Shown: positions 37,151 through 60,310 of the stretch, piece by piece
How the letters are laid out: each line of letters opens with the position of its first letter
How positions within the stretch are numbered: position 1 is the first letter of the stretch
From: Armatimonadota bacterium
GTDB taxonomy: Bacteria; Armatimonadota; Hebobacteria; CAIYQO01
Direction of reading: 5' to 3'
NCBI GenBank assembly: GCA_029553475.1
Contig: JAKPKV010000186.1
Coordinates: forward strand, 7,808 to 71,807
DNA: 64,000 nucleotides
Notes under the pieces: model-generated
Told to the model about the DNA's origin: nothing
The model's database searches: none
The model's input: the letters and a program-made list of their open reading frames with translations, nothing else
Translations under genes and position numbers: made by a program

Positions 37151-38889
<1,739 letters not shown>

Positions 38890-38893
<4 letters not shown>

Positions 38894-40167: not shown

Positions 40168-40192
40168 ACTTGCAACCCGGAATCTGGAACCG

Positions 40193-41338
40193 ATGATGAA
40201 TGCAAAGCTTGTACTGAGTGATGGCACCGTCTTCACCGGCCTTTCCATCGGGGCGCCGGTGACCCACGTCGGCGAGGTGGTCTTCAATACCTCAATGACC
40301 GGGTATCAAGAGATGTTGACGGACCCGAGTTACCGGGGGCAGATTCTCACCCTCACCTATCCGCTCATCGGCAACTACGGGGTGATGGCGGAGGATTGGG
40401 AATCGGGCGAGATTCAGGTGCGCGGCTTCGTGGTGAAGCAGCTCTGCGACGCCCCCAGCAACTGGCGCGCCACCGGCGCGCTGGACGCCTTCCTGAAGGA
40501 GCGCGGGGTGCCGGGCATCGCCGGGGTGGATACGCGGGCGCTCACCCGCCTCATCCGCGCGGGCGGCGTGATGATGGGCGCGCTGAGCGGCGAGGATCTG
40601 TCGACCGAGGAGGTGCTGGCGCGCATCGCCGCGGAGCCGAACTACGGCGCCAATGATTTCGTGAGGGAGGTGAGCGGCGGGCGGACATACCCGTGGACGG
40701 AGCCGGCCCAGGCGCCCTACGATACGCTGAAACGGTTCGTTGCCCCGGAGCCGCTGCGCGTGACAGTGGTGGACTACGGCGTGAAGCGCAACATCCTGCG
40801 CCTGCTCGCCACCCGCGGCTGCGCGGTGCGCGTGGTGCCGTGCGAGGCGTCGCCGGCGATGATGCTGGAGGGCCGGCCGGACGGCATCGTCTTCTCGCCC
40901 GGCCCCGGCGATCCGGCGCTGCTGGATTACGCCCGCGAGAGCATGAAGGCGGTGGTGGGCGTGGGCATCCCAATTCTGGGCATCTGCCTGGGGCACCAGC
41001 TCATGGCGCACGCGTTCGGCGGGCGCACCTTTAAATTGAAGTTCGGCCACCGCGGCAGCAACCACCCGGTGAAAGATTTGGTGCGCGCCGGCACGGTGCA
41101 CATCACCGCGCAGAATCACGGCTACGCGGTGGACGCCGACAGCATCGCCGGCAGCGGCCTGGAGGTGTCGCATATCAACCTGAACGACGGCACGGTGGAA
41201 GGCATGGTCCATCGGACCCTGCCCATCATGACGATGCAGTTTCACCCGGAGGCCAGCGGCGGCCCGCGTGACACGGAGTATATGTTCGACGAATACGTCC
41301 GCCTGGTCGCCGAAAAGCGCGCGGCGGTGAAGGTGTAG
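40193..41338 (+). CDS. carA: carbamoyl-phosphate synthase small (glutaminase) subunit
   Basis: GICLGHQLMAHAFGG is the class-I glutamine amidotransferase Cys motif, on a CPSase small N-terminal domain. Confidence 0.85.
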   Translation: MMNAKLVLSDGTVFTGLSIGAPVTHVGEVVFNTSMTGYQEMLTDPSYRGQILTLTYPLIGNYGVMAEDWESGEIQVRGFVVKQLCDAPSNWRATGALDAFLKERGVPGIAGVDTRALTRLIRAGGVMMGALSGEDLSTEEVLARIAAEPNYGANDFVREVSGGRTYPWTEPAQAPYDTLKRFVAPEPLRVTVVDYGVKRNILRLLATRGCAVRVVPCEASPAMMLEGRPDGIVFSPGPGDPALLDYARESMKAVVGVGIPILGICLGHQLMAHAFGGRTFKLKFGHRGSNHPVKDLVRAGTVHITAQNHGYAVDADSIAGSGLEVSHINLNDGTVEGMVHRTLPIMTMQFHPEASGGPRDTEYMFDEYVRLVAEKRAAVKV

Positions 41339-41631
41339 AGAATGAAAGGCTATATGCACGGTACCACTGGGACTGACTGCGCATGGCCGTATTGGCAAGC
41401 CGTGGCATCAGTGCGCCCCCGTGGCGGGGTGAGCGCAGTCGTGCCATGCGTAGTCTGTCCCTTCAACGCTGGGACCAAACTATCAAGATTTCACGCAGGG
41501 ATGGCACCGCCGTCCGGACGGCAAGGGGGCATCGGATGATTGTCACCGCATGACCCACCGACGACCGGATGCAGAAGAAAGCCAGAGAGAGGAGGTAGAC
41601 CGCGTTCCCCCCTTGATACACGGGAGCAGCA

Positions 41632-42595
41632 GATGACACAGGAACACATCGAAGACACGACACCGTCCATCGAGACGCCGGCGACAACCATGATCGGCAG
41701 CCTGCTGCCGCGGCTGCGGGCGCTGCTGATGACCTGGCCCGACGTGCGGCTGGCCTATTTCCAGCCCGCGCCGGCGGACGATCAGCTGTGCCTGCTGGGG
41801 CCGGACCGCGCGCGGGTGATCCTCTGCTTCGCGCGCAGTGTCTCCGGCGAGCACATCAGCAAGCGGCTGGCGAAGATTCGCCGGCACTGCAAACCGCTGA
41901 CGCGGGGCGAGGTGGAGTTCCTGGATATCGAGGACCTAGACTACCGCGAGGCCTGCGAGGTGGCGTTCAACGCGCAGGTGGCCTACGGCGCGCTGGAGAG
42001 CGCCGAGCGCGACCGGCTCTATCGGTATAACGTCTTCCTGGAGTGGAACGCCAGCAAGCGGATACAGGGCACGCGGCAGGACACCCCGCCGGTGCTGGCC
42101 CCCTCGCTGGAGCGCCCGCCGACGGTGGTGCCGGTGCAAAAGTTTCTCAGGCCGCTCTACCGGCAGATGAAACTGCTGGACGGCTACCTGCGCGAGCTGC
42201 GGCGCATTGCCGAAATGGCGCCGAACGAGTTCACCGCCGACGCGGCAAACAAAGGACAGGCGGAGTCCTGCCTGTTGAAAGGCATTCAGAGCGTCATCCT
42301 GGTGACGTTGAGCATCGTGCATCGGAACATGCGGCTGGCCGCGCGCGATTATCGCGACCTGTTCCTGCTGCTGCCGCTGTATGGCCTGATGCCGCGCGAG
42401 CGCGCGAACAAGCTGGCGAAATGCGCCGAGCTGCGCGACCGCCTCATGTTCCAATACGACGACGTCACCGCGCTGGAGGTGCACGGGCACGTGGAAGCCG
42501 TGCTGGATACGCTGGCCGACTTCAAGAGCTATATGCTCGAGTGGCTATTCGATAGATATTATGATCCGACCGGCGAGTTGGTCCAAACAGAATAA
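41632..42595 (+). CDS. hypothetical protein with C-terminal DUF86 / HepT-like (HEPN) domain and a possible degenerate nucleotidyltransferase N-terminal domain
   Basis: C-terminus LKGIQSVILVTLSIVHRNMRLAARDY ... AELRDRLMFQYDDV resembles HepT R-x4-H-x-Y, with the His replaced. GGGAG RBS. Confidence 0.35.
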
Positions 42596-42608
42596 GCGAG
42601 GCCAGACG

Positions 42609-43103
42609 GTGCGCGCCATCGCGACGGCACTGGTTGAACACCACGGCCACCTGCTGCTCTGTCAGCTTGCGCGCGGTGAATACGCCGGTTTCTGGCTGCT
42701 GCCGTCGGCGTCGGTAGATGACGGGACGGTGTTGCAGACCGCGCAGCGGATGCTGCCGGAGCGCACCGGCTACACCGCGACGGCGCTGGAGCTGGTGAGC
42801 GTGGTTGAGGAACCGAAGACGAACGCGTTGAGCCTGCGTTTCGTCTTTGCCGCCGCCGTGGCGGACCCGCAGGCCGAGCACAGCGATACGGATATCCTGC
42901 AGGCGCGTTGGTTCAGCCGCGCCGCGGCGCGGGAGCTGCTGGCGGAGCGGGACGTGGTGCCGAATCTCGGCGTGATGTCGCTGGTGCGCGCCTGGGCGGA
43001 CGGCATCACCCCGCGGCCGCTGGAGTTGCTGGACGAGAGCGCGCCGTGCCCATGCGGGTCAGGCTACGGCTTCCGCGGGTGTTGCGGATGGGATAGCAAA
43101 TAG
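42609..43103 (+). CDS. NUDIX hydrolase with C-terminal SEC-C metal-binding motif
   Basis: NUDIX-fold body; terminal CPCGSGYGFRGCCG. GTG start with GAGG RBS. Confidence 0.5.
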   Translation: MRAIATALVEHHGHLLLCQLARGEYAGFWLLPSASVDDGTVLQTAQRMLPERTGYTATALELVSVVEEPKTNALSLRFVFAAAVADPQAEHSDTDILQARWFSRAAARELLAERDVVPNLGVMSLVRAWADGITPRPLELLDESAPCPCGSGYGFRGCCGWDSK

Positions 43104-43134
43104 CCCCAGCGGGGCGTGTGCGTGAGGAACACGA

Positions 43135-44820
43135 ATGCCAAAGCGAACCGATCTGAAAACAGTCATGGTCATCGGCTCCGGCCCGATCGTCATCGGGCAG
43201 GCGGCGGAGTTTGACTACGCCGGCACCCAGGCCTGCCGCTCGCTGCGCGAGGAGGGCCTGTCCGTGGTGCTGGTGAACAGCAACCCGGCCACCATTATGA
43301 CGGACATGAACATGGCCGACCGGGTGTATGTGGAGCCGCTGACGGTGGAGTTCCTCACCCGCATCATCGCCAAGGAGCGCCCGGACGGCCTGCTGCCCAC
43401 GCTGGGCGGGCAGACGGGCCTGAACCTCGCCACCAAGCTGGCGAAGAAAGGCGTGCTAGACGAGTACCGCGTGGAGCTGCTCGGCACGCCGCTGGAGTCC
43501 ATCGAAAAGGCGGAGGACCGCGAGCATTTCAAGGCGCTGATGCAGGAGATCGGCGAGCCGGTGCCGGAATCGGCCATCGTCGAGCGCATGGACGAGGTGG
43601 AAGAGTTCCTCGACGAGCTGGTGCGCGTCGAGGCGAAGACCGGCCAGCCCGTCTACCCCATCATCGTGCGGCCTGCCTACACGCTGGGCGGCACCGGCGG
43701 CGGCATCGCCGACACCTGGGACGAGCTGCGCGACATCTGCGTGCGCGGCTTCCGCATGTCCATGACCTCGCAGTTGCTGCTGGAGCGCTGCCTGCTCGGC
43801 TGGAAAGAGATCGAGTACGAGGTGATGCGCGACGGCGCCGACAACTGCATCACCATCTGCAATATGGAGAATTTCGACCCGATGGGCATCCACACGGGCG
43901 ACTCCATCGTCATCGCCCCCAGCCAGACGCTCACCGATAAAGAGTACCAGATGTTGCGCACGGCGTCGCTGAAGATCATCCGCGCGCTGGGCATCGAGGG
44001 CGGCTGCAACGTGCAGCTCGCGCTGGATACCAACTCCTTCCGCTACTACGTCATCGAGGTGAATCCGCGCGTGAGCCGCTCCTCGGCGCTGGCCTCCAAG
44101 GCCACCGGGTACCCCATCGCCCGCGTGGCGGCGAAGATCGCCGTGGGCCTGCATCTGGATGAAATCCAGAACGCGGTGACGAAGCGCACGCTGGCCTGTT
44201 TTGAGCCCGCGCTGGATTACTGCGTGCTGAAGATCCCGCGCTGGCCTTTTGACAAGTTCAACTTCGCCAACCGCCGCATCGGCACGCAGATGAAGGCCAC
44301 CGGCGAGGTGATGGCCATTGACCGCACCTTCGCGGGCGCGCTGATGAAGGCGGTGCGCTCGCTGGAGATCGGGCAGCTCGGCCTGGCGATGAAAGGCATC
44401 GGCGAGTGGTCGGAGATGAAGCTGGAAGAGGTGCTGCGCCACGCCACCGACGAGCGCCTCGCCGCCATCTGCGAAGCCTTCCGCCGCGGCATGGACGTGC
44501 CCGAGGTGCGGCAGCTCACCAACGTGGACCCGTGGTTCCTGCGGCAGGTGAAAGACCTGGTGGAGTTGGAATTGGAGTTCCGCGCCCACTTCGGCCTGCC
44601 GGATGAAGCGATGCTGCGCCGCGCCAAAGAGTGGGGCTTCAACGACCACTACCTGGCCGAGCTGTGGGGCGTGAAAGAGGCGGAAATCCGCGACCTGCGC
44701 CGCCACTGGGGCATCCAGCCCGTCTACAAAATGGTGGATACCTGCGCCGCCGAGTTCGAATCGGAGACGCCGTATTTCTACTCGACGTACGACCGGGAGA
44801 ATGAATTGGCCGTGGTATAA
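43135..44820 (+). CDS. carB: carbamoyl-phosphate synthase large subunit, N-terminal half (carboxyphosphate domain plus oligomerisation domain)
   Basis: [34 protein letters not shown]... It ends [14 protein letters not shown] exactly at the boundary between the two homologous halves of full-length CarB. Confidence 0.85.
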
Positions 44821-44839
44821 TGGGCGCGAGGTCAGTTCC

Positions 44840-45193
44840 ATGCAAAAAACCACCAGGAATATCGCACGACGATTCACACCACGCCAATGGGAGGTGATCT
44901 CCGCCGTGAAGGCAGCCGCCCGACATGTACTGCCGGACGCGGACATCATCCTCTATGGCTCCCGCGCGCGCGGCACCGCCGGGCCGGAGTCCGACTGGGA
45001 TTTCCTGATCCTCACTGACGAGACAGTGACCGTGGCACTGGAAGAGACGATGCGCAAAGCGATGGATGCCCTATCGCTGGAGATCGCGGAGGTGATCAGC
45101 GCATTTCTCGAAAATCGCCAGACCTGGAAAACACCATTGTTGAAAGCAACACCCTACCATCAGGCGATCGAACAGGAGGGAATCGCGGTATGA
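44840..45193 (+). CDS. nucleotidyltransferase-domain protein (MNT-type antitoxin-like)
   Basis: Minimal NTase motif GSRARGTAGPESDWDFLIL (GS-x9-D-x-D). GAGG RBS. Confidence 0.65.
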   Translation: MQKTTRNIARRFTPRQWEVISAVKAAARHVLPDADIILYGSRARGTAGPESDWDFLILTDETVTVALEETMRKAMDALSLEIAEVISAFLENRQTWKTPLLKATPYHQAIEQEGIAV

Positions 45194-45312
45194 GCGACGA
45201 GCGAGCCACGCTGATACGCTACCGATTGGAACGAGCGCACGAAGCACTGGAAGAGGCGGACGTATGCTGGAAGATGGCACATTACAATTCATACGTCAAC
45301 CGGCTCTATTAC
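45190..45312 (+). pseudogene. HEPN-domain gene N-terminal fragment, truncated by insertion of MITE copy C
   Basis: MSDERATLIRYRLERAHEALEEADVCWKMAHYNSYVNRLYYAC resembles a HEPN helix-1/2 pattern ending in RLYYA. The reading frame then runs into the repeat terminus TGTAGCGGGTCGTCACG. Confidence 0.4.
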
Positions 45313-45545
45313 GCATGCTGTAGCGGGTCGTCACGATGTACCTTGTTCTTCGTATCAACTCAAGCGTCTTGTAGGGAATGTCCCGCCGTGGCATTCCAGA
45401 AGCGGTGCGCGGTGGAGTCCGCGACCAAACGCTATCGTCCCGTGCAGCGTGCCGATTCGCGACGGTCGGGAATGCCACGGCGGGACATTCCCTACCAGCG
45501 CTGATACCGATGTCGCAGCCGTGGTTGCCCGCGGCGACACGGTTT
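45313..45545. repeat. MITE-like repeat (copy C) with a 27-bp perfect internal inverted repeat
   Basis: Terminus TGTAGCGGGTCGTCACGATGTACCTTG. Internal GTAGGGAATGTCCCGCCGTGGCATTCC is inverted as GGGAATGCCACGGCGGGACATTCCCTAC. 3' end CCGTGGTTGCCCGCGGCGAC. Confidence 0.4.
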
Positions 45546-45626
45546 ATCGCGTTTGTTGAGGACGTCATCACACCATACACCACCGAGTGGTGCATGAGAG
45601 ATCACCTGGCGTTGACGAGGAAAACC

Positions 45627-45923
45627 ATGTTCATCCATTCCGTCTATTTCTGGCTGCGCGACGACCTGACCGACGCGCAGCGCGCGGCCTTCACCGAAGG
45701 CGTGCGGTCGCTGGCGACGATTCCGGCCGTGCGGAGCGGCTATGTCGGCGCCCCGGCGGCCACCGACCGCCCGGTGATTGACCGCAGCTATTCCGTCGGC
45801 CTGGTGGTGGACCTGGGCGACCTGGCCGGGCACGAGGCCTACCAGGCGCACCCAACGCACCTGGCCTTCCTGGAGCAGTTCAAGCCATTCTGGACGAAGG
45901 TGCAGATTTACGATTTCGCGTAA
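45627..45923 (+). CDS. Dabb-family stress-responsive alpha/beta-barrel protein
   Basis: 98 aa. MFIHSVYFWLRDDLTDAQRAAFTEGVRSL ... HEAYQAHPTHLAFLEQ. GAGGA RBS 8 nt upstream. Confidence 0.6.
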   Translation: MFIHSVYFWLRDDLTDAQRAAFTEGVRSLATIPAVRSGYVGAPAATDRPVIDRSYSVGLVVDLGDLAGHEAYQAHPTHLAFLEQFKPFWTKVQIYDFA

Positions 45924-45976
45924 ACCTGCGCCTCCGTGCTCTCCGTGTCTCTGTGTTTGAGTATTGAGGATCAGTC

Positions 45977-47548
45977 ATGTCCGAGAAGCAACGCGTCATC
46001 GTCATCGGCTCCGGGCCCATCCGCATCGGGCAGGGAATCGAGTTCGACTACTGCTCCGTGCACTCCGTGTGGGCGCTGCGCGAGGAGGGGTACGAGGCGA
46101 TCATCATCAACAACAACCCGGAGACGGTCTCCACCGACTTCGACACCTCGGACGCCCTGTTCTTCGAGCCGCTCACCGTGGAGGACGTGCTGAATCTGAT
46201 TGACCAGGTGCAGCCGGAGGGCGTGGTGGTGCAGTTCGGCGGGCAGACTGCCATCAACCTGGCGGGGCCGCTGCACGCGGCGGGGGTGAAGATCCTCGGC
46301 ACCGACTTCCGCGGCATCGAGCTGGCGGAAGACCGCAAGCTCTTCGACGCGCTGCTCACCGACCTCGACATCGAGCGCCCGAAGGGCCGCGCCATCACGT
46401 CCGTGCCGGAAGCGGTGGAGGCCAGCCGCGCAATCGGCTTCCCGCTGCTCATCCGCCCCAGCTTCGTGCTCGGCGGCCGCGCGATGGAGATCGTCTACGA
46501 TGAAGAGCACCTGCGCCGCTACATGACCTACGCCGTGGACGTCGCGCCTGACCGCCCCATCCTGGTGGACCGCTACATCGTCGGCAAAGAGGTGGAGGTG
46601 GACTGCATTTCCGACGGCACGGACGTGCTCATCCCCGGCATTATGGAGCACATCGAGGCCGCCGGCGTGCACAGTGGCGACTCCATGTCCGTCTACCCGC
46701 CCGTCACCCTCTCCCGGCAGGTGAAGGATACCGTGGTGGAGTACGCCATGCGCCTCTGCCGCGGCATCGGCGTGGTGGGGCTGATGAACATCCAGTACGT
46801 GGTGGACGAGCACGACACCGTCTACATCATCGAGGTGAACCCGCGCGCCTCGCGCACCGTGCCCTACATGAGCAAGGTCACCGGCGTGCCGATGGTGAGC
46901 CTGGCCACCAAATGCGCCCTCGGCCGCACGCTCAACGAGCTGGGCTACGCGCACGGTCTCTATCCCGAGCGCCCCTACTTCGCGGTGAAGGCGCCGGTCT
47001 TCAGCTTCTCAAAACTCACCGAGCTGGACGTCTCCCTCGGGCCGGAGATGAAGTCCACCGGCGAAATCATGGGCGTGGACCCGTCCTACCCGCACGCGCT
47101 GTACAAGGCGATGGTCGGCTCGCACATTGACGTGCCGCTGCGCGGCTCGATGATCGCCACCATCGCCGAGCGCGACAAACCGCGCGCGCTGCCCATCATC
47201 CGGCGCTTCCGCGAGCTGGGGTTCAAGGTCTACGCCACCCGCGGCACCGCGCTTTTCCTCATCCAGCACGGCGTGGACGCGCAGAGCGTGGCGAAAATCT
47301 CCCAGGGCAGCCCGCACCTGCTCGACCTCATCCGCGAGGAGAAGATTGACCTGCTGCTGAACACGCTCTCGCCGGAGAAGACGGTGGAGCAGGAGGGCGC
47401 CCGCATCCGCCGCGCCTCGGTGGAGCACAACATCCCCTGCCTCACCTCCCTCGACACCGCCGAAGCCCTCCTCCTCGCCCTGGAAGCCCGCCGCGCCGGC
47501 GAAGATTTTGCCGTCTACGCGCTGGACGAGCTGCTGCAGATGGCGTAA
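45977..47548 (+). CDS. carB: carbamoyl-phosphate synthase large subunit, C-terminal half (carbamate-phosphorylation domain plus MGS-like domain)
   Basis: MSEKQRVIVIGSGPIRIGQGIEFDYCSVH ... with a C-terminal MGS-like region. It has its own GAGGA RBS 7 nt upstream. Confidence 0.85.
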   Translation: MSEKQRVIVIGSGPIRIGQGIEFDYCSVHSVWALREEGYEAIIINNNPETVSTDFDTSDALFFEPLTVEDVLNLIDQVQPEGVVVQFGGQTAINLAGPLHAAGVKILGTDFRGIELAEDRKLFDALLTDLDIERPKGRAITSVPEAVEASRAIGFPLLIRPSFVLGGRAMEIVYDEEHLRRYMTYAVDVAPDRPILVDRYIVGKEVEVDCISDGTDVLIPGIMEHIEAAGVHSGDSMSVYPPVTLSRQVKDTVVEYAMRLCRGIGVVGLMNIQYVVDEHDTVYIIEVNPRASRTVPYMSKVTGVPMVSLATKCALGRTLNELGYAHGLYPERPYFAVKAPVFSFSKLTELDVSLGPEMKSTGEIMGVDPSYPHALYKAMVGSHIDVPLRGSMIATIAERDKPRALPIIRRFRELGFKVYATRGTALFLIQHGVDAQSVAKISQGSPHLLDLIREEKIDLLLNTLSPEKTVEQEGARIRRASVEHNIPCLTSLDTAEALLLALEARRAGEDFAVYALDELLQMA

Positions 47549-47755
47549 AACAGCGGCGGGCGAGACGCCGTCGAGCCGCATACACCGTGCCGGCCGCGTC
47601 TGCGCCCTCTGTCTCCACAGGGGAATCCCTCGCCTTCCCGAATTTGTGCGCAGATCCCCGCCGGCTACCTGTTTGACGGCAGGATTAGCGCCCGCTATAG
47701 TGGGGAGAGAGCCACAGGTCGTGAATTCCCGGAGATCGGGAGCGGAGAAGATCGT

Positions 47756-50700
47756 ATGACACGACGGCCAGGGTGGCGCGGAGGGCTCCTGAGCGTGCTG
47801 CTGGTGGGAATGCTGTGTGCATACGCTCAAGAGGCAGCGCTGCCGCGCCCCCCGGACCCGCCCCCCCATCGCGATCACCCCCAGTGACGGCTTCAGCCTC
47901 GAAGTGGTGGACCAGACCACCCCGCACTACGTCATCGTCAAACTCACCTCCCCCGCGCACAACTGGCTCGCTGGCACCTTCACCCACCTCCCCACGGACA
48001 AAGACGTCACTATCGGCCTATCCATAGCCGGCAACGATACCAAGAGCAATGCCGCCGACGTGAAGAAGTGGCAGGGACTGGTGCCGGTGATGACCTACGC
48101 CGACCCGAAACAGTACGAGACCTACAAGTGGGATGCGCAGGGCCGATGGGTGAGCGGCGACCCCTTCAAGCAGGATGAAGCGAAGTACGCCGGCACTGGC
48201 AAAGTGCCAGCGCAGGCGGTCATTCCGAAGGATATGGCCGAGCAGTTCCTCTCGGCAGACGGGAAATACTGGTCTGCGTGGCGGGAGGTGGACACGGCAG
48301 AAGCGTTGCCGGGGATCAACGTCTTCCGCATCACCCAGCGCTTTGGCCAGGCCACCGCGACGGTGGCGATGCGGGTGCCCTACACCTATACCCGCGGCGC
48401 GCCCTGGGCGTCCGCGACGAAGACGCCGTCGGCCAGTACCGCCTGGAATCTGGCGACTACCACGGTGCCCTCGCCGGTCTACATCGAGGGCACGGGGGCG
48501 AGCAGCGCGGTAGGCGACCTGGAGGTGATCCTGCGCTACGCGAACGGGGGGACGACGACACAGGACGTGGTGAAGGCGACGGTGGTTGACGTTAACCTGG
48601 AGATCGAGGGCGTGGCGGACGCTGACGAGGAGACGGTCGGCGGAGTTGTCGGGAAAGGTGCCGGTCTGCTTCCGATCACCCTCTCGATTCCTGAGAGCTT
48701 GCGGACCGGTGTTGTCTCTTTGGAGGCGACCGCCGGCGGCACGCGGATTGAACTCTACGAAGATGCGGAAGGGACAACAGCGCTCCCGCTGGTGCCTGTG
48801 CCGACATGGAATCTGGCTAACCAAGAGGCCGTCTCGCAAACGCTCTATATCAACGGTGTCCAGGCAAGTGCCGCAATGCGCGATGCCACCCTTAAGCTGC
48901 GGTACGAAAAGGCTGGGCAGGCGGCGGAAGATTTCGTCAAACTCACGGTGGCGAAGATCGATCTCGTCATCCAGAATCTCGCTGAAGAAATCGATGCCGG
49001 AGGAAATCCCCCGCATGAGACGGATCCGGACGCATTTCTGCCGGCCAATACCGATGATGATAACGGTAATGGGATCGCGGATCATGCGGAAGTTGCCGTG
49101 TGGGACGAGGACCTACAGGTTGATCGCACGTATGTCGAGAGTGAAAATGACTTGGTCGCCCTCAAAATTGGAACCCTCCCCGTCGGGTCTACCGGCACGG
49201 TTACGTTGGCAAGCAGTAACGATAAGCTCGTCTTCTGGACATCCCCGAAGAAAGACAGCAAAGTGTCCGATACGCTGACGCGGACCTGGACGATCGGCGA
49301 CGAGAACGATCCGATACCGGATACGGTGTATGTGGAAGGGGTCGCCGTCAGTACAGCGGTGCGCGATACCGAGATTACGCTCACCTACACCGGTGCAGGC
49401 ATTACCGTTGCGGATGTCCTCAAAGTGACCGTGGTGCAGGCCGACGTCTCCATCCAGGAATGCACTGAAGCGAGTGAAGTGTCGCCGGGCGCCATTGTCA
49501 TGCTGAATCGGGAAGGCGATGACCTGGTGCCGATGACGCTGACCCTCTCCCCCTCGGGGGTCGATGTCGGGAAGCTCGGACTCACCATGAGCGGAGGCGT
49601 GAAGCTCTGGACCTCTTTGGCGAAGGAGGTAGAAGCGCCTGCGTCATGGACGCTCGCCCCCGGCGCACCCTTCACTGGCGCCACGTATTACGTCGAAGGT
49701 ACAGCGGTGAGTACGGCATTGCGAGACAAAGCTGTGTCATTCACCTATGCCGTCAATGAGAAAAAAGTGCACGAAGATATCGGCAAGGTGACGGTCGCGA
49801 ACCTCACCATCAGTTTGCCGGAGAAGGCACTGTATACGAATACTGATGATGATAACTTAAATGGTACGGATGACATAAATGACCCGGGAGAAGTGGCGGA
49901 TGAAAATGACTTGAAACAGCTCTTGATTAAACTCGAACCGGCTGGCTTAACGGGAACCCTCACGGTAGCAGTGAAAACGCTTGAGACGGAGAATAACGCC
50001 GGCGAAGACTATGATGCCGCACCGCGCGTCAATCTGACAACGCTGCCGAAAGTGGGCCAGCGGTTGTCGGAAACGCATACGTGGCAGAGACCGAACGACA
50101 CGTTTCCCACCGCGCTCTGGGTTGAAGGGAAGCGTGTCAGCGCAGACGAGGATGACCAGGAGATCACCGTCACCTACGAATACGGCGCATCTTCCCTCTC
50201 GTCAATCGCGCTTGCGACGGTGGAAGCGCGAATCGCAACATCAGAAGTGTGTTTCCGGCTGTACCAAATGAATGACAGTAACCCAACGGTTGCCTCACTG
50301 GCGACCCAGCCGGAGATAAACGCGGGCACGGTGGGAGATACCGTCGCGGTGGTCATGGAAGTGAAGATCGGCCCGGACAACCGGGTCGCGCGGGATGCCG
50401 AAGGCACGCTCCTCGCGAATGAGGTGCAAGTGCTGATCAAGGACCTGTGGGAGGGCTATGAGCCTGATAAGTCACGGGCACAGTGCGATCCGACTGTCGC
50501 GCTCGATTGGGCCTCCCGGTTGTCGGAATGCCAGAACGTGGGCACCCCACAGGCGAGCTGGAATGCCGGTGGCGACACAGCACCATCCGAAAGTAACCTG
50601 AATGCCGCGAAGCCACGCATCTTCCGCGCAATCGTGAAAAAGTGGGACACCCGGACCGGGCCGGGCGTGACGTATTTCAACGAGGCGACACAACAATGGA

Positions 50701-52607
50701 CGGGCTTCACGCCGACGATGGGGCATAACACAAAACACTCCATCAGTGTAATGGCGATTGATGGGGATGCGACCAAAACGAAAATTCCGTTCCAACAATA
50801 CACGGTGGCCACGGACGGGTGGGGCACAGCGACCGAGGTGGACGTGAAGGCCCGCGAAGTGGAGGTGAAGAACCTGGTGGTGTCGAATGTGAATGCCACT
50901 ACAGGTACTGTTGACTACTTGCGCTATGATCCGGACCCCGACAGTCCGTATCATCGCCCGAGGATAACTTTTTCGGTTGATGATACGGTGTTTCCACAAC
51001 CCGACCATACGTACAAGTATTGGGTGATGATTCAACCGACGAAGGATAGCGGAAAGGAATTGTTGGACTTAGATGATATCTATTCGTATGCCTATACGTT
51101 CGCACATGGTCAAATGCCACCTGTCGTGAGTGAGATAGAATGGGTAGGAACGGATAGCATGGATGGTGAACCGGATAGTGCGCAGCGGGGAACATATACG
51201 TATGATGTAGTTGTAGAAGAATGGGTAGGTTCAACGCTTATCGATAGGTTTGCTTATAAGTGGCCATACTGTTTGACAGTGGATAAACACGATACTTGGG
51301 TTGATACTCTTGATAGTGGGCAAGTCATGAAGTTTCATTATACATTGTACGATTACTGTTATTACGATACTACGTTACCAAATTCGAAACTTCACTCTCC
51401 TACAGGAGTAAACGTCATTATCATAGATAACGAGTTGAACGAACGGCAGCTTACAAACCTAATTGCTAATCCAAACGAGATAGGAAACCCTCATGATGGT
51501 GGTGGAGATGGGTTAGTCGCATATGAAGCGAGTGATAGTGAGGTTATTGGCACTTGGAGGATATTAATAACTGGTAGAGATGAGTGTTGGGTAGCATACA
51601 GACGCGACCACAATCCATCATTAATGTTGGCTGTTAACAAAGAGAGCTTGCTTCAAGCGATAGTGCTGCACCCTATACAAATCTTGACTTCTTTTCTCAA
51701 TTTTGATACAGGTGGTCCAGATTGGATAAGAAATCTTGAAGGTAATGCTATGGGGTTAGTAAATTTCACTGCGGGAACACTAGATGTAGCCCTCACGAAT
51801 GGGCCAGTAAGTAACGCAAATATTTTAGTTGTTTATTGTCGTAACCAAGCAATGAAAGATGCAGTAGTATCAGGCTTTGGCACAATTCGTAAACATGGTA
51901 TGAAAATGTACGTGTCGCAAGAGATAAATAAATTTACACAGACACTACAGCAATACAAAGTATGGGAAATTGAAGATCCGTATGTTTTCGGTAAGAGATT
52001 TATGGAGGCTGGTCTCACGATATACTCCCTTGGTCGAGGCGCACAAGGCTTAGCCAAAGCATCTCTTCCGCCAAGGGCTGCTGTGCAAGGAGCGCCGAAG
52101 ATCGTTGAATTGAAATCCGGCTCACCGTCTGCTGCAACTATTTCGGTAGAAGTCACAAATCAGTTTCTTGCAGCAAGGGAGACAGCAGCACTAATGCGCC
52201 TCCCAAGCTATTATATTAGACTCTATCAAGCATGGACGTCGCCTAAAGGATTAGTATATACGAAAGCGTTAATTCGAAGAGGGAATAGCACACTGATTGA
52301 GTGTAGAGTAAAGCATGTATCAGTTGATCACTCACATGAATATGGTCTGCCAGGTAAAACATATTTCAAGTGTCCGCAAAAAGAAATTTTATCTGTCGTT
52401 GACAGGGCGTGGGAAAGAATCGTTATGAAAGATCCAGCAGTTAAGAAAGCGGTCGAAGGAGGACGAATAAAATATGAGATGAAACTCGGGTCAGGAACGG
52501 ATCATATCGGTACGGGAGGAGAGCAATGGATACAGATCATTGTTGAAGGTGAGTATGAAAACCTTCTCGTCTCAGCTTATCCGATACCTGTACCATCAAT
52601 ACCATAA
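47756..52607 (+). CDS. giant secreted tandem-repeat protein. Signal-peptide exon (47756-47887) is out of frame (-1) with the main ORF (47817-52607) at a poly-C tract. C-terminal ~500 codons sit in AT-rich DNA: candidate polymorphic-toxin-like or adhesin-like protein
   Basis: ATG at 47756 encodes MTRRPGWRGGLLSVLLVGMLCAYAQEAALP (signal peptide), then stops at 47885. Deleting one C in C6 (47848-53) or C7 (47861-67) reads through into ...IAITPSDGFSLEVVDQ... Body has ~120-aa repeats (YVEGVAVSTAVRDTEITLTY...DVLKVTVVQADVSIQ) and Asp-rich NTDDDNGNGIADH motifs. GC falls from about 65% to about 40% after ~50.9 kb. Confidence 0.55.
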
Positions 52608-52630
52608 CTTTTATATGGAGGTATTGCAAC

Positions 52631-53848
52631 ATGATATGTCCCTATTGCGAAATTGGACTGATCAAATGCATTCAACCAGAAGCACAGACTTCGATTGAGT
52701 CATCTGCATTTGAGTGCGGCAACTGCGATACTTGCTGGGCGACGATCACAGATCTTCTGAATTTACGTCATTTACGACCGCACGAATCAGCATTGCTCGA
52801 CAAATTATTGCACCAAGAAGCCTCGTTGGGATCACGAGATGTATGGTTTGAAAAAGCCGAAGAACGACGTTTCATTCATCTCGAACTGTTCGCGCAACTA
52901 CGTGAAGAGAATACCGAGCATGTCAAGCGTCTGATTCGTAAAGAAGACGGCGATGTCACAGATGAATACTACCGTACTGCCTTACATATTGCAGCACAAA
53001 AAAACATGTATGTAATTGTTGAGATGATACTGACTCATCAGCATGTCAGTATCAATGCAACGGATGATTATGGGTATACCCCTTTGCATTACGCGATGTG
53101 GCATGACAATACGGCGTTATATGATCTGTTGTTGAAACACGGCGCAGACTTGAATGCTCTGACACATAATGGTGATACTCCACTCATGACAAAGACATAC
53201 CAATGGGGGGATTATCAGCAATCATCTGTAAAATATTTGCTGAAAAAAGGCGCGGAAGTATCGCATGTTAACAAAGATGGACAGACAGCATATTCTTATT
53301 CGGTCATGCGAAACAGATATGACATTGCTAGTTTACTGGAAGGACATGGCGCTGCCATATTTCTACAGAATATATTTGGCATTACTCCCCTCCACTATGC
53401 CACGCGGCATAACTCACTCGACTTGGCTTACTTCCATATACAAAGAGAGCATCCAGCACAAGTTGTCAATAACGCCGGTAATACTCCGCTATATAATACG
53501 CTACTTGTTAAAGAATTAGTTCGCATAGGATTAGATGTCAATCATAGAAACAAGGATGGACAAACGCCACTGCACTATGCGGCACGATGGAATGCAAGTA
53601 ATACTCAATATTTGGAAATTCTGATTGCAAACGGGGCCATTGTGAATGCGACGGATTATTACGGATATACTCCCCTTCACTTAGCTGTACTAAACTCGTA
53701 CTACCCTGATTCTACACGATTGCTACTGCAGCACGGTGCCGATAAATTTGCAAGAGATGTCTGGGGACGAATGCCTTTGGACCTGCTACTTCAGCATTGC
53801 ACGGATACTGGAAGGCGTGAAATGTTTATCAGCCTGCTATCATGGTGA
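52631..53848 (+). CDS. ankyrin-repeat protein with N-terminal CxxC-x16-CxxC zinc-ribbon-like motif; candidate immunity or effector partner of the giant protein
   Basis: N-terminus MICPYCEIGLIKC...CGNCDTC. Multiple ANK repeats (TALHIAAQKN, TPLHYAMWHDNTALYDLLLKHGADLN, TPLHYATRHN, TPLHYAARWN, TPLHLAVLNS). GGAGG RBS. By eye about 40% GC. Confidence 0.75.
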   Translation: MICPYCEIGLIKCIQPEAQTSIESSAFECGNCDTCWATITDLLNLRHLRPHESALLDKLLHQEASLGSRDVWFEKAEERRFIHLELFAQLREENTEHVKRLIRKEDGDVTDEYYRTALHIAAQKNMYVIVEMILTHQHVSINATDDYGYTPLHYAMWHDNTALYDLLLKHGADLNALTHNGDTPLMTKTYQWGDYQQSSVKYLLKKGAEVSHVNKDGQTAYSYSVMRNRYDIASLLEGHGAAIFLQNIFGITPLHYATRHNSLDLAYFHIQREHPAQVVNNAGNTPLYNTLLVKELVRIGLDVNHRNKDGQTPLHYAARWNASNTQYLEILIANGAIVNATDYYGYTPLHLAVLNSYYPDSTRLLLQHGADKFARDVWGRMPLDLLLQHCTDTGRREMFISLLSW

Positions 53849-53952
53849 AACGAATGTAACTACTCCGGGTAAGCATCCGGTTCTGCCGGGAAACTCCAGC
53901 AGTTTGACAGTTGTGGGAACGGTATGAAGTTCACATACGGGAGACATGACGG

Positions 53953-56106
53953 ATGATTACGAAACCATTGTTCATAATTGCGCTATTATTCACACTCGGT
54001 AGTATCGTACATGCGCAGCAAGTCAGGCCGACAGACCGACCATTCGACGGAAAATCGCACGTGGACTACCTGACCGCATGGTCAAAAACGCCGGATGCCG
54101 GCGCGGCTGCGCTGCTCGACTGCGCGCAAATCGCCATTGCCGCTGATAAGACACAGAACTGGGACAGCGCGCTGATGGCGGAGATTCGCAAGGCATTGGC
54201 CGCTAATCCATTGGCGCTGGCACGACTTGACGCCTTTACGCAACTGCTGGGCGGTGACACGGCCGGGGCCGCGGCCCTCTTTGCGACACGGCAAAACGAG
54301 CCGGGCACGCGGGAAGCCACGACCGTGATTCGCTGGTTGCGCGGGTTTGACTACCCGCTGGCGGCGGATGCCGTGGAGGCCTTGACCCGCGACCTCACGA
54401 AAGCGCGCCTGATCGCCTGGCTGCGCATCCCCAAGGAGAAACGCGGTCCGATTGATGAGAACATGCTGCAGCGCTATCTGCCCAGCAGCATGAACCGGCG
54501 CGCCCTGGTGGAAATCGCCCTGAACCTGTATGCGGCCCCCCCGCCCGATTGCGGTCTGTCAGCGATTGATTTCCTGGAGTTCGCCGTCTGGTTCGGCAAA
54601 GACACCGGCCTGCTCACCTTGTCGCCTGCCGATGATCTGGCGTCGCGACGGCAATTTCAACCCGCCATCCTATATGCCCAGCGTCTTGCGGCGGTATATC
54701 CGACTGATTACCGATTGCAGCGCGTGATCTGTAGATTTTTCACAGAATGTGGGGATCGTCCGTCCGCAATCACACGCTATCAACAACTGCTCGCTGCCGA
54801 CCACGAACCTTACGTGCGCGAAGTGCGCCTCGATTATCTGGAGCGTCTTCGCACCGGATTCCTGAAACCGGAAAACGTGACGCTGGCCGGCATGCAGCAG
54901 GACGCCAATCCGCTGTGCGCCGGGGATGCGCTGCTGGTCGAGAAGAAGTATCCCGAAGCGGCGGCACAGTATCGCAAGGTATTTCAGGATGCCCGCGCGC
55001 CCCTGCCGCGGCGCCTTTCTGCCTGGACGGGGTTGCTGGACAATGAGCCGGCGTGGGCATTAGAGCAGGCGGATGCGCTCTTCACCGCGCTTGACGCGGC
55101 ACAAGCCTTGCCCGATCGCGCGGCGCTCGTCGTCTGGACCGGGTGGCAACTGGCGCGCATCACGGAACGCGAAATACCCCTTGCCTATGGCGTGCGGGAG
55201 GCGACCCGCCTGGAATACATCCCCGTCCCGACCGTCGAGGGATGGACAGCGCGGCTATCGGCCTTGATGGATCGGGTGGTCGCGATGGATCCGGTCGCCT
55301 GCTTGAAAACCGGCAACGTGGATCAGCCTTCTTTGCGGTATTCGGCCGCCCTCATCCATGCGTTGACCGGGAACATGAAGCAAGCCGATGCCGTCGCGAA
55401 ACAGGAAGTCACCTACATGGCTCCACCGCCACCGGGCGGCTGGTTCACCTTCCCCGGCACGCCGGATAAAGACGCGGACAAACCGCGTCAGCAGAAGAGC
55501 CCCGTCCCCGGCGAGCGCGAACAGCTCATGGCGAAATTGACGCCCGCCGTCGGCCGCTTCTTTGAAGCCGCGGTGAAGGAGCCCACCGCGAAAATCCCCC
55601 ACAGTCCGCCGAACCTCGAACTCATCTTTTCCCTGGCCTCGCGGGTGAATGTCGTCGAAATCCCTCATCAGCGCACGGCGAATATCCAGGAATTTGCCCG
55701 CCAGTTCATGTTGGCGATTGAATATTTAGACCCCAAACAGCGCAACCTGAGCCTGAAAAACCCGCCGCCACCGCCGCGGGAGGTAGATTTTTTACAGGTT
55801 GCATCGTTACGCACCGCCATCAATGTGGCCTTCAAACCCGATGGGGCAGCTAAAGAGGCGGTTCCCTTCGTGAAAGAAGGCCTGCAGGAAGCCATGCTCA
55901 TCGCCAGCAACCCGCGGTTGCTCAGCGAGCTCTGCGGGATCACCTTATTGGTGATTGACCGGTATGGCGAGGCGCTACAGGATACAAAGCTCGCGGAAGG
56001 GCTGGCGCATAACGTGGCGAAGTGGCTGGCCATCCGTGAAGTCTATGATATGCGCCCGTATGTGACGCGATTGCGAGAGCACTATACACCGCCTGACGCG
56101 GAATGA
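53953..56106 (+). CDS. hypothetical secreted alpha-helical protein
   Basis: Signal peptide MITKPLFIIALLFTLGSIVHAQQ. 717 aa, Ala/Leu-rich; no recognisable catalytic motif. GC returns to background. Confidence 0.45.
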   Translation: MITKPLFIIALLFTLGSIVHAQQVRPTDRPFDGKSHVDYLTAWSKTPDAGAAALLDCAQIAIAADKTQNWDSALMAEIRKALAANPLALARLDAFTQLLGGDTAGAAALFATRQNEPGTREATTVIRWLRGFDYPLAADAVEALTRDLTKARLIAWLRIPKEKRGPIDENMLQRYLPSSMNRRALVEIALNLYAAPPPDCGLSAIDFLEFAVWFGKDTGLLTLSPADDLASRRQFQPAILYAQRLAAVYPTDYRLQRVICRFFTECGDRPSAITRYQQLLAADHEPYVREVRLDYLERLRTGFLKPENVTLAGMQQDANPLCAGDALLVEKKYPEAAAQYRKVFQDARAPLPRRLSAWTGLLDNEPAWALEQADALFTALDAAQALPDRAALVVWTGWQLARITEREIPLAYGVREATRLEYIPVPTVEGWTARLSALMDRVVAMDPVACLKTGNVDQPSLRYSAALIHALTGNMKQADAVAKQEVTYMAPPPPGGWFTFPGTPDKDADKPRQQKSPVPGEREQLMAKLTPAVGRFFEAAVKEPTAKIPHSPPNLELIFSLASRVNVVEIPHQRTANIQEFARQFMLAIEYLDPKQRNLSLKNPPPPPREVDFLQVASLRTAINVAFKPDGAAKEAVPFVKEGLQEAMLIASNPRLLSELCGITLLVIDRYGEALQDTKLAEGLAHNVAKWLAIREVYDMRPYVTRLREHYTPPDAE

Positions 56107-56116
56107 TGCTGTCATA

Positions 56117-56986
56117 CTACTCCCCACGCACCACCAGCTTCGTGCGGCCGATGAGGATTTCGTCACCCGGATTGATCGGGGCGGATGCGGTCACCTCACC
56201 GTTCACCTTCGTCTTGTTGACGCTGTCCAGGTCGCGCACGATCCACGCGTCGCCCTCCTGGATGAACTCCAGGTGATCGCGTGACACGGCGTTATCGGTG
56301 AGCGGGATATCGTTTTTCGGCCCGCGGCCAATGCGCAGGCCGTGGCGCAGGCGGATGGTCAATCCCGCTTCATGGCCCTCCACGACCTCCAGGCTGGGGG
56401 CGAGGGTGAGCAGTTGCGTGGCCATGTCATCGGGGAGGAGCGGCAGCACCACCGTTTTCTCGCCCGTGCCGGCCCCTTCCGTCTTCTCGGTTGGCCCATC
56501 GGTGCGTTCCGCGCCGGCCACGGCGGTTTTGTCCAGATCATCGCCGGCGCGCAGCGGGTCGAGCACCGTTCCCTGCTTCGCGAGCTCCGCATCCAGCACG
56601 GCGTTCATCGGCGGCGGCGTCTTCATGCTCACCGGGGTGATCTTCACCTCGTGTGCCTTCAGCGATTCATCTTCCTGCAGGCGCACGGCAATGGGGCCGA
56701 CGGTTTTATACCCCTGATCGGCCACGTGCTGCTTGAGGAGCGTCTCGAACTCCGTCAGCAGCGGCGGGCACAGCATGCTGAACTTGGCGAAGGTGTCGGC
56801 GCTGACGATGATGACGAAGAGATTCGGCACGAAGGTTGAGCTGGGCGCCACCGTGCGATGGGCATCCATCTCGCGCACCAGCCGTTTGCCGATCTCCACC
56901 GGCTGTACCGGCGTGCGGAATACGCCGTCGGTAAATCGTTCAATCAACCCTTCCAGCGCTTTTTCTAACCGATCCAGCAGTTCCAT
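56117..56986 (-). CDS. FHA-domain protein with FhaA-like N-terminal domain (DUF3662)
   Basis: N-terminus MELLDRLEKALEGLIERFTDGVFR (FhaA N-terminal pattern). C-terminal FHA LTIRLRHGLRIGRGPKNDIPLTDNAVSRDHLEF...NGE. GGAGG lies 6 nt before the chosen ATG. Confidence 0.7.
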   Translation of the reverse strand: MELLDRLEKALEGLIERFTDGVFRTPVQPVEIGKRLVREMDAHRTVAPSSTFVPNLFVIIVSADTFAKFSMLCPPLLTEFETLLKQHVADQGYKTVGPIAVRLQEDESLKAHEVKITPVSMKTPPPMNAVLDAELAKQGTVLDPLRAGDDLDKTAVAGAERTDGPTEKTEGAGTGEKTVVLPLLPDDMATQLLTLAPSLEVVEGHEAGLTIRLRHGLRIGRGPKNDIPLTDNAVSRDHLEFIQEGDAWIVRDLDSVNKTKVNGEVTASAPINPGDEILIGRTKLVVRGE

Positions 56987-57045
56987 AATCATCCTCCCGC
57001 GCAGACACTCCTACCGATATACGCGTCTGAGCTGACGAGCTGCGA

Positions 57046-58221
57046 TCAGCACAGTGACGCGACGAATTGCCCCATCCGCGCCATCGCCTCCTCGATGAGC
57101 GGCAGCGCGGTGGCGTAGCAGCAGCGCACGTAGCCTTCGCCGCACTCACCGAAGGCGTTGCCCGGCACCACCGCCACCCGGTGCTCCATTAGGAAGCGCT
57201 CGGCGAATGCCGTTGACGTCAATCCCGTGCGAGTGATGCAGGGGAAGACGTAGAACGCGCCTTTCGGCTCGAAGCAGGACAGGCCCAGCGCCCGCAGCCG
57301 GTTGAGAATGACGCGGCGGCGCTGGTTGTAATCGTCGCGCATCATCGCCACGTCGCGGTCGCCGTGCTGCAGCGCTTCCACCGCCGCCATCTGTGCCATG
57401 GTCGGCGCGCACATGGCGGTATAGGCGTGCACCTTGTTCATCGCGTTGATGATCTCGGCGGACGCGGCCACGTAGCCCAGCCGCCAGCCGGTCATCGCGA
57501 ACGCCTTGGAAAAGCCGCTCAACACGATGGTGCGGTCGCGCATGCCCGGCAGTGACGCGAAGCACACCGGGTCGCCATCGTAGGTCAGCTCGGCGTAAAT
57601 TTCATCGGAGACCATCACCACGTCGCGCCGCGCCGCCACCTCGGCCAGCGCCGCCATGCGCGCGCGCGGCAGGATGGCGCCGGTGGGATTGTTCGGATAG
57701 CCGATCAGCGCCACCTTCGCGCCGCTCTCCGCCAGCGCGCGATCGAAATCCTCCGCCGCCAGCTCGAAATTGTTCTCGGCATACGTCGGCATGAAGACCG
57801 GTTCGCCGCCGGCCACCGACACCAGCGCGGGATAGGCCACGTAGCAGGGCTGCTGAATGACCGCGCGGTCGCCGGGGTTCAGCAAGACGCGCATCGCCAG
57901 GTCCAGCGCCTCGCTCACCCCCACCGTCACCAGGATTTCCGTCTGCGGATCGTAGGACACACCGAAACGCCGTCGCAAATACGTCGCGATCTCCCGGCGC
58001 AGCTCGATAATGCCGAGATTCGCGGTGTAGCGCGTATACCCTTTCTCCAGCGAGAAGATGCCGGATTCGCGCGTGCCCCACGGAGTGACGAAATCCGGCT
58101 CACCGATGCTCAACGAAATGGCATCGGGCATGGATTCCACCAGGCCGAAGAAGCGGCGGATCGGCGACGGCTGCAGTTGCCGCACGCGCTGCGAAATACG
58201 GGTTGCGGGATCAAACGACAT
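57046..58221 (-). CDS. pyridoxal-phosphate-dependent aminotransferase, class I/II (aspartate aminotransferase family)
   Basis: LSIGEPDF ... GYPNNPTG ... SGFSKAFAMTGWRLGY is the PLP-lysine motif region. Start is 52 codons inside the ORF-track start. Confidence 0.8.
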   Translation of the reverse strand: MSFDPATRISQRVRQLQPSPIRRFFGLVESMPDAISLSIGEPDFVTPWGTRESGIFSLEKGYTRYTANLGIIELRREIATYLRRRFGVSYDPQTEILVTVGVSEALDLAMRVLLNPGDRAVIQQPCYVAYPALVSVAGGEPVFMPTYAENNFELAAEDFDRALAESGAKVALIGYPNNPTGAILPRARMAALAEVAARRDVVMVSDEIYAELTYDGDPVCFASLPGMRDRTIVLSGFSKAFAMTGWRLGYVAASAEIINAMNKVHAYTAMCAPTMAQMAAVEALQHGDRDVAMMRDDYNQRRRVILNRLRALGLSCFEPKGAFYVFPCITRTGLTSTAFAERFLMEHRVAVVPGNAFGECGEGYVRCCYATALPLIEEAMARMGQFVASLC

Positions 58222-58501
58222 GATTATCCTTCGGTCTTCCCGGGATGGCCGGCACGCGGCGCATCTCCGCGCACGAGTATAACAAAGCGCGCCATAAACG
58301 GGCAAGGTCATGCCGGCGGTGGCGGCGTTGGTTGACAAAACGAACGCCGGCGTCGTCTTTCCGGGAAACCCCGTCACCTTTTCCGTCGCGCGGTGTCAAA
58401 AGATGCGGGAGCGGCGCGGCGGGCATGTTACAGGGAACCGCCGGCCGGGTACGTAGGAAGCGGGAACGCTTTCCCGTGCTGGAGGGGAGAGGGGTGATAG
58501 C

Positions 58502-60210: not shown

Positions 60211-60310
60211 CGATATCGCCGTATCGAAACCCGCCGCTGCCAGCGGAGGACGGATTTCACGGCTGGCGAAGTATGGGGTGAAGAAGAGTCGTCAGCATAG
60301 CATGGATGGC

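Follow-up and report, generated by a model that had tools for sequence, protein, structure and literature searches.

In Sec-dependent polymorphic toxins, a signal peptide and a long, repeat-bearing scaffold are followed, across a sharp boundary, by unrelated C-terminal modules, and ankyrin-repeat proteins form one of the listed immunity classes of these systems (Imm-ank; Zhang et al., 2012; PMC3482391). Switching of secreted or surface proteins by simple sequence repeats (SSRs) is described for the contingency loci of Campylobacter, Neisseria, and Haemophilus, and the minimum cut-off used by PhasomeIt for poly-G/C tracts in AT-rich Campylobacter is at least 7; the authors caution that, for tracts of just this length, mutation rates may lie below 1e-5 and switching may be inefficient (PMC6321876). 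In the present analysis, a poly-G/C tract was regarded as long enough for hypermutability at 7 or more, or experimentally at 8 or more. Furthermore, CC[C/U]-[C/U] is a documented +1 slippery motif, which leads to up to ~1% frameshifting in Escherichia coli at the second codon (PMC4519876). The locus analyzed here bears some likeness to each of these systems. It lies in a 64,000-nt stretch of DNA (“the window”) from an Armatimonadota bacterium (assembly GCA_029553475.1, contig JAKPKV010000186.1, positions 7,808 to 71,807) and consists of a giant gene of 4.85 kb, in which a short open reading frame (ORF) coding for a Sec-type signal peptide is out of frame with a downstream ORF of 1596 aa. With a probability of roughly 0.7, this split is explained by a real and recent replication-slippage insertion (C6 to C7, 47861-47867) that silences the export of a chimeric, Sec-dependent polymorphic-toxin-like gene product.

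The first of the two frames starts with the ATG at 47756 and is closed by a TGA at 47885-47887. This ORF of 43 codons (MTRRPGWRGGLLSVLLVGMLCAYAQEAALPRPPDPPPHRDHPQ*; 47756..47887, forward strand) holds the ancestral N-terminus, with the signal peptide, the start of a proline-rich linker, and six out-of-frame codons. In the +1 frame, a TGA stands at 47790-47792, after which no stop occurs from 47793 to 52607; the GTG at 47817 is the first start codon of this frame. The giant ORF (47817..52607, forward strand, 1596 aa; P0001 at NCBI, P0004 at JGI) is annotated from this internal GTG, lacks a signal peptide in the annotated form, and stays open through to its stop although its last 1.5 kb have a GC content of only ~41%. 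The idea that the giant ORF has another start in its own frame, with a separate signal peptide, was ruled out, as the +1 frame is closed upstream of 47793. The only place where both frames can be joined is the linker, which reads CGC CCC CCG GAC CCG CCC CCC C between the end of the signal peptide (~47845) and the start of the homologous domain (47868) and contains a C6 and a C7 run. Deletion of one C results in a 1616-aa fusion (...ALPRPPDPPPIAITPSDGFSLEVV...), whose layout is identical to that of in-frame relatives. The two ORFs belong to a single gene, which an indel of 1 nt has split within the poly-C linker. The initial annotation had described the same arrangement, i.e., a first frame ending at 47885-47887, a main ORF in the +1 frame starting with a GTG and lacking a signal peptide, and a C6/C7 segment in which the loss of one C fuses both; all of this was confirmed, and relatives were found to use the fused frame.

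That annotation also credited the ATG at 47756 with a good upstream context and a signal peptide, and several observations bear this out. A Shine-Dalgarno core GGAG (47744-47747, forward strand) is located at an 8-nt spacing from the ATG and is part of a CGGAG motif that is invariant in all four aligned loci. A sigma-70-like promoter-like site (TTGACG-17-TATAGT; 47673..47701, forward strand) lies ~55 nt upstream of the ATG and shows 10/12 matches, with 0.1 such sites expected in shuffles; in the alignment, related loci carry TTGAC- and TA-type hexamers at the equivalent position. The predicted Sec-type signal peptide (MTRRPGWRGGLLSVLLVGMLCAYA; 47756-47827, forward strand) can be divided into an n-region (MTRRPGWRGG), an h-region (LLSVLLVGMLC), and a c-region with a predicted cleavage site (AYA|QE). 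It thereby passes a crude test for signal peptidase I (SPase I) substrates of the Sec pathway, which asks for a positive n-region, a hydrophobic h-region of 10-15 residues, and small residues at positions -3 and -1. Only 14 of 1115 ATG-started open stretches in the six frames (1.3%) passed this test, the 47756 ORF included, and several of the 14 begin long ORFs with a gene-like composition and the same A-x-A|Q ending. This rarity, together with the retention of promoter, 5' untranslated region (5' UTR), and signal peptide in four related loci, makes a chance ORF unlikely. A lipoprotein signal was ruled out, as GMLC does not fit the lipobox. The expected mature N-terminus would be QEAALPRPPDPPPIAITPSDG..., and QEAALPRPPDPPPIAITPSDGFSLEVVDQTTPHYVIVK a peptide expected from the giant protein.

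When 5.8 billion proteins were searched with the fused N-terminus, 16 relatives emerged. Two of them, P0010 (from an Armatimonadota metagenome-assembled genome, MAG; loci L083/L084) and P0005, are each encoded in a single frame, in which signal peptide, PRxPDPxP linker, and N-terminal domain are continuous: P0010 reads MPRRPGWRGGLLGVLLAGMLGASVQEAAPPRAPDPPPVAITPQDGFNLEVV, P0005/L086 reads MTRRSWWRGGLLGVLLVGMLGASAQEATLPRPPDPTPIALTPQDGF, and the P0005 loci (L086/L087) read MTRRSWWRGGLLGVLLVGMLGASAQEATLPRPPDPTPIALTPQDGFNLAVV. Both contain in-frame equivalents of the window's signal peptide, and in-frame signal peptides are also found at the start of the more distant P0009, P0011-P0014, and P0016. 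In two DNA alignments of related loci (A2 and A3), promoter, 5' UTR, start codon, signal peptide, and linker are conserved. These comparisons show the reconstructed ancestral frame to run from ATG 47756 through the signal peptide and a PRPPDPPP linker into the N-terminal domain. An in-frame version of the window gene itself was not found among the 5.8 billion proteins, and a scan of genome contigs with the fused protein yielded no relative.

The alignments also locate the extra base. The first poly-C run of the linker (C6; 47848..47853, forward strand; CGC CCC CCG, read as R-P-P) has the same length in the in-frame loci L086/L087 and in L091 and is therefore not the site of the lesion. The second run (C7; 47861..47867, forward strand) has one base more than all four related loci, and A2 and A3 both show a one-column gap in all other sequences opposite this run. 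Its C6 version would read CCG CCC CCC ATC (P-P-P-I) in frame. As the extra base is found only in the second run, the lesion is the change from C6 to C7 at 47861-47867. The comparison of the tract among relatives, which had been proposed as a check, thus sets the window apart as the only sequence with an extra C, while the relatives interrupt the second run (CCGCCGCCC or CCCACCCCC) and stay in frame. Only three runs of at least six C or G exist in the 4.85-kb gene, two of which are situated in the linker. The linker is consequently the natural indel hot spot of the gene, and the location of the lesion can be explained without invoking a function.

In the proposed course of events, slippage would have added one C to the proline-rich linker, which connects the signal peptide with the mature part of the protein. 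Ribosomes starting from ATG 47756 would then stop after 43 codons, and the 1596-aa body would be made only from the poorly signalled internal GTG or by rare +1 slippage, and without an export signal, so that the toxin-like protein would effectively not be exported. As the downstream ORF of 4.8 kb is still intact, the lesion would have to be recent, and the gene would be functionally silenced and at the beginning of a decay like that of its sister copies.

Indeed, each of the five closest copies, the window's included, is disrupted in at least one assembly. L085 and L091 originate from the window's own metagenome (3300010344) and are both out of frame between signal peptide and domain, due to different lesions. 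In L085 (contig 63, Ga0116243_10000063; P0006, with the NCBI twin P0180), 2 nt have been gained in a (TG)6 run within the signal peptide; furthermore, 2 aa are deleted, and a second frameshift affects the M14 domain ahead of the AREHATEH zinc motif. L091 (contig 708, Ga0116243_10000708; P0007) lacks one C in a third C run (CAC-CCCCAGG), and P0181 from an ENA assembly is in the same state. The 5' ends of L086/L087, which come from other samples, are in frame, and an apparent 2-nt deletion in the M14 domain emerges when their DNA is compared with the protein of the intact allele, the 501-aa P0185 from another sample. P0010/P0187 end prematurely at about residue 150; the accession series of P0187 (HOF...) makes the window's own MAG its probable source. 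More distant members are broken just before the AREHA(T/N) zinc-motif segment, either by an in-frame TAG (L088, on four contigs) or by another shift (L092). Several of the lesions in the family are located off repeats and are irreversible by slippage. With the other four close copies disrupted as well, the family appears to be under relaxed selection or under selection for silencing, which argues for early pseudogenisation and not for an evolved switch.

As a separate observation, the interruptions in four homologues (L085:10690-10730, L086:1060-1100, L088:8880-8890, and L092:1690-1740) fall within the same stretch of ~20 codons between “RVEDP...” and the zinc-motif segment “I(A/I)AREHA(T/N)E” and comprise two different frameshifts, a TAG, and another shift. 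This clustering is too tight for random decay; the stretch may represent a linker that is hypervariable, a joint formed by recombination, or a site of recoding.

Several points weigh against a recent silencing mutation. The three copies from the same metagenome all have indels in the ~110-nt segment covering signal peptide and linker, in each case within short repeats (C7, C5/6, and (TG)6), and this clustering is also what weak contingency switches would be expected to look like; however, the segment holds the longest homopolymers of these genes, and a mutational hot spot would be enough to explain it. No further lesion exists downstream, and the chance that ~500 codons at 41% GC remain open is ~1e-14 (author's estimate from base composition); an intact downstream ORF fits continued use as well as a very recent mutation. 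Consensus assemblies mask minority alleles, so that C6 alleles may be present at low frequency. Finally, the three public assemblies of the locus considered below are 100% identical and probably represent one clonal population, perhaps with shared reads, and thus amount to fewer than three independent observations.

The best surviving alternative is slipped-strand phase variation, which the initial annotation had put forward as a possible interpretation and which is regarded here as unlikely. In this scenario, a C6 ON state with an exported toxin and a C7 OFF state would interconvert at a useful frequency, with the sampled populations being mostly OFF. A change of one repeat unit does toggle the gene between a truncated and a full-length product, the 5' end of a secreted protein gene is the classic position for such a tract, the downstream ORF is intact, and two paralogues of the same metagenome have likewise lost their frame within this 110-nt segment, in each case at a short repeat ((TG)6 in L085, C5/C6 in L091). 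With regard to tract length, the OFF state of C7 just reaches the PhasomeIt minimum of at least 7 (PMC6321876), whereas the ON state would be C6 and thus beneath any published cut-off. Tract-length variants were seen neither among the NCBI, JGI, and ENA assemblies nor in the protein sets searched, including a pattern scan of the assemblies that permitted any run length. The run is not conserved as a repeat in the homologues, the paralogues bear additional lesions that slippage cannot revert, and the other four close copies are broken at different and partly non-repeat sites. The tract is also not unusual in statistical terms: only five C7/G7 runs are present in the window, as compared to 17.5 +/- 4.9 in dinucleotide shuffles, i.e., such runs are depleted and not over-represented, and one of them is located inside pyrB. 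In this genome of 65% GC, proline is mainly encoded by CCG and CCC, and proline-rich linkers therefore produce C runs automatically. A fixed pseudogenising frameshift, which the initial annotation had named as the outcome that would speak against a switch, fits best. If mixtures of C6 and C7 reads did exist, the logic of contingency loci would extend to toxin export in an environmental phylum; otherwise, the lesion is an ordinary one.

An error of sequencing or assembly at the homopolymer, with the organism truly carrying C6 and an intact gene, had been offered as a further alternative and is very unlikely. Indel errors do concentrate in homopolymers, the rest of the downstream gene is intact, and the NCBI record is a third-party MAG. 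Yet C7 is the consensus in all three public assemblies of the locus, which differ in length and coverage: the NCBI contig of 122.6 kb, the JGI contig Ga0116243_10000461 (95.6 kb), which is 100% identical to the window over 16,776 bp (37817-54592), and the ENA contig ERZ795030 NODE_45539 (2.2 kb, coverage 4.7), which is 100% identical over 2,160 bp (45803-47962). In the JGI and the ENA contig alike, the linker has the first run as C6 and the second as C7. Other C7/C6 runs of the same contig are read in frame, e.g., the C7 run at 38812 in the housekeeping gene pyrB (ATC CCC CCC GCG) and the C7 run at 54536-54542 in an ORF of 717 aa, and the pyrB, DHOase, carA, and carB genes are intact within the 16.8 kb shared with the JGI contig. 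In addition, the frameshifts of the paralogues recur in independent assemblies (P0181 for L091, P0180 for L085). The agreement of the assemblies and the in-frame reading of other C7 runs make an error improbable.

Equally doubtful is a more elaborate scenario, in which the signal-peptide/proline-linker segments would act as weak contingency switches, with C and TG runs uncoupling the export of several toxin or peptidase copies, supplemented by a leak through +1 slippage on CCC_CCC_C at a poly-proline stall that is possibly dependent on elongation factor P (EF-P). Each lineage would then export only some of its payloads, and, if true, a polymorphic toxin repertoire gated by SSRs or by recoding would be described for the first time in a phylum of environmental bacteria that are not pathogens. 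The least probable explanation is recoding proper, i.e., a +1 ribosomal shift on CCC_CCC_C by re-pairing of the P-site tRNA-Pro, perhaps assisted by D-P-P-P stalling and with a low, regulated yield of exported protein, or else transcriptional slippage: CCC CCC C does stand in the zero frame as a documented slippery motif (PMC4519876) whose P-site codon is able to re-pair in the +1 frame, the slip would yield exactly the ancestral protein sequence, and CAU, which occupies the A site, is the less used of the two His codons (28%), but neither a prfB-like, Shine-Dalgarno-like stimulator upstream (as read directly from the sequence) nor other programmed +1 frameshift stimulators were found at the tract, the A site holds no stop or rare hungry codon, the RNA fold downstream is unremarkable (z = -0.61), the shift is not conserved among the in-frame homologues, the paralogue lesions require shifts of opposite sign, and the expected efficiency is ~1% or less. 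A common recoding rule for the family was ruled out, as the lesions differ in sign and type.

The giant gene itself is of composite architecture. Its N-terminal domain of ~175 aa (fused residues 38-212; 47868..48392, forward strand) is shared with secreted M14-peptidase-like proteins, where it precedes the catalytic domain (P0002, P0003, and P0009 with PF00246); identity amounts to 74-82% for the close Armatimonadota copies and to 45-56% for P0002 and P0003. Homology ends at RVPYTYT (48392), the point at which the relatives run on into the M14 catalytic domain. No M14 remnant, such as a catalytic domain with an HxxE zinc motif (PF00246), was found in any frame of the window gene, and a hidden M14 domain in another frame was thereby ruled out. 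P0002 (900 aa), a distant homologue, exhibits three tandem N-terminal domains ahead of its M14 domain, which characterizes this domain as a repeatable module and not as a fixed pro-domain.

Downstream of this domain, five modules of ~55 aa (W.L...VY[VI][EN]G...S...D..I.L.Y......D..K.TV; 48441..50259, forward strand) follow, with two DDDN acidic motifs between them. A scaffold (49005..51644, forward strand) is common to 299 proteins, 35 of them at E<=1e-30. In ~35 of the 40 best matches, similarity ends at fused residues 1294-1301 and gives way to unrelated tails of 100-450 aa; a widely common region, a sharp boundary, and unrelated C-terminal modules are thus found in the order known from polymorphic toxins. 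The tails of the homologues include a Toxin-deaminase domain (P0021), DUF6973 (P0024), Peptidase_C39_2/C70 (P0029), and a HELGH metallopeptidase motif (ORF neighboring L085). Full-length homologues of the scaffold begin with Sec signal peptides, which indicates that the signal peptide is needed for function.

In the window gene, the boundary is followed by an orphan C-terminal domain of ~320 aa (fused residues 1297-1616; 51645..52604, forward strand), a presumed toxin module with a GC content at third codon positions (GC3) of 0.30-0.37. No homologue, no Pfam match, and no match in a PDB sequence search were found for this domain, and its AlphaFold model is unusable (mean predicted local distance difference test score, pLDDT, of 35). 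Pfam, NCBIfam, and PADLOC searches with the giant ORF, as a whole and in six segments (E<=10), yielded nothing usable. The domain ends with ...HVSVDHSHEYG...WIQIIVEGEYENLLVSAYPIP, a sequence that faintly resembles the C-termini of small RNase-type toxins; no tool backed any assignment. Only 23 nt downstream of the giant ORF, a gene codes for an ankyrin-repeat protein of 405 aa (52631..53848, forward strand), which is a candidate immunity protein.

Base composition changes stepwise along the gene. GC3 is 0.82-0.87 for fused residues 21-320, 0.58-0.74 for residues 321-1120, and 0.30-0.37 for residues 1121-1616; the three levels (0.85, 0.65, and 0.35) lie within one ORF, and the lowest carries on into the ankyrin gene (0.40). 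This fall implies that recombination has joined the giant gene at two or more places, near residue 320 and near residue 1120. The joint near residue 1120 would precede the homology boundary (residue 1296) by ~175 residues. The giant gene is a chimera, with signal peptide and N-terminal domain of an M14-peptidase family fused to a Sec-exported, polymorphic-toxin-like scaffold. Its layout is that of Sec-dependent polymorphic toxins in which the C-terminal cassette has been swapped, with a candidate partner of the Imm-ank type, and the protein is a putative toxin.

The promoter/signal peptide/N-terminal domain module is found in comparable surroundings elsewhere. In L085:9948-16528 and L091:7846-10000, it is present at native GC content (0.62-0.68) and is followed by low-GC DNA (0.38-0.52), which in L085 contains an ORF of the polymorphic-toxin family with a HELGH tail and a possible immunity gene, followed by transposases. 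It seems that foreign cassettes are repeatedly joined at this module.

The giant ORF, the ankyrin gene, and a gene for a secreted protein of 717 aa together form an island of 8.6 kb (47549..56115). A related genome (L093, GCA_964590255.1; 83-87% nucleotide identity) runs colinear to the window as far as the stop codon of carB and lacks 47549-56115; the adjoining block of 5.2 kb (56116-61307) is inverted in L093. The locus is consequently an island specific to the strain and located where a rearrangement has its breakpoint; this accessory setting and the mosaic composition count in favor of the proposed slippage mutation. A search for direct or inverted repeats on its flanks gave short matches at chance level only. 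The 717-aa ORF (53953-56106) starts with a clear signal peptide (MITKPLFIIALLFTLGSIVHA|QQ) and has no match in Pfam, NCBIfam, or PADLOC; the JGI contig ends within it at 54592, 50 nt past the C7 run at 54536-54542. Upstream of the island, carB exists as two genes within 43135-47548, coding for the N-terminal (43135-44820) and the C-terminal half (45977-47548). The source name of the exactly matching carB protein is an Armatimonadota MAG, whereas a contig scan with the C-terminal half yielded relatives of at most 58% identity. A nucleotidyltransferase (NTP_transf_2) gene, a small ORF, and a Dabb-domain gene are located between the halves, and a HepT-like gene lies upstream (41540-42595). L093 exhibits the same split with only the Dabb gene in between, indicating that the split is ancestral and that the MNT-like insert is strain-specific.

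For the annotation of the locus, it follows that the deposited 1596-aa protein begins at a spurious internal GTG and that the entry represents a gene with a frameshift, the true N-terminus of which is provided by the signal peptide at 47756. For its biology, the analysis points to a Sec-dependent polymorphic-toxin-like family in Armatimonadota that combines a scaffold not described before with an orphan C-terminal module and an ankyrin partner. The local copies of this family appear to be undergoing silencing.

When compared to the described systems, the locus is similar to prfB +1 programmed frameshifting and CCC-C slippage (PMC4519876; PMC7577736) in that a zero-frame CCC_C is present and a +1 shift yields a functional product, but it lacks stimulatory elements and a conserved shift. 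With the SSR contingency loci of Campylobacter, Neisseria, and Haemophilus (PMC6321876), it shares a poly-C tract in the 5' part of the coding sequence, in a gene for a secreted or surface protein, as well as ON and OFF states that are one unit apart. In contrast to these loci, its tract is at or below the minimal length, exhibits no observed length polymorphism, and is not conserved, SSRs are not enriched, and the host is a GC-rich environmental member of the Armatimonadota, in which C runs arise from Pro codons. The likeness to Sec-dependent polymorphic toxins (Zhang et al., 2012; PMC3482391) comprises the signal peptide, the long repeat-bearing scaffold, the sharp boundary with an unrelated C-terminal module behind it, homologues with Toxin-deaminase, papain-like or C39-like, and HExxH tails, a foreign GC content at the C-terminal end and in the adjoining gene, and an ankyrin gene in the immunity position (Imm-ank). 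Unlike in these toxins, the window scaffold has no counterpart in Pfam (neither RHS nor filamentous haemagglutinin nor HINT), the orphan domain at the C-terminus has no recognised toxin fold, and the N-terminal module is borrowed from an M14-peptidase family. The closest parallel to the event itself is provided by frameshift pseudogenes resulting from slippage at short homopolymers: a C6 run gains one base, translation from the true start is truncated, relatives are in frame, and sister copies are broken. The window gene differs from these in having one lesion and an intact ORF of 4.8 kb, so that its inactivation would be very recent or incomplete. The event is thus a fresh example of a familiar kind, a homopolymer frameshift in an accessory toxin-like gene.

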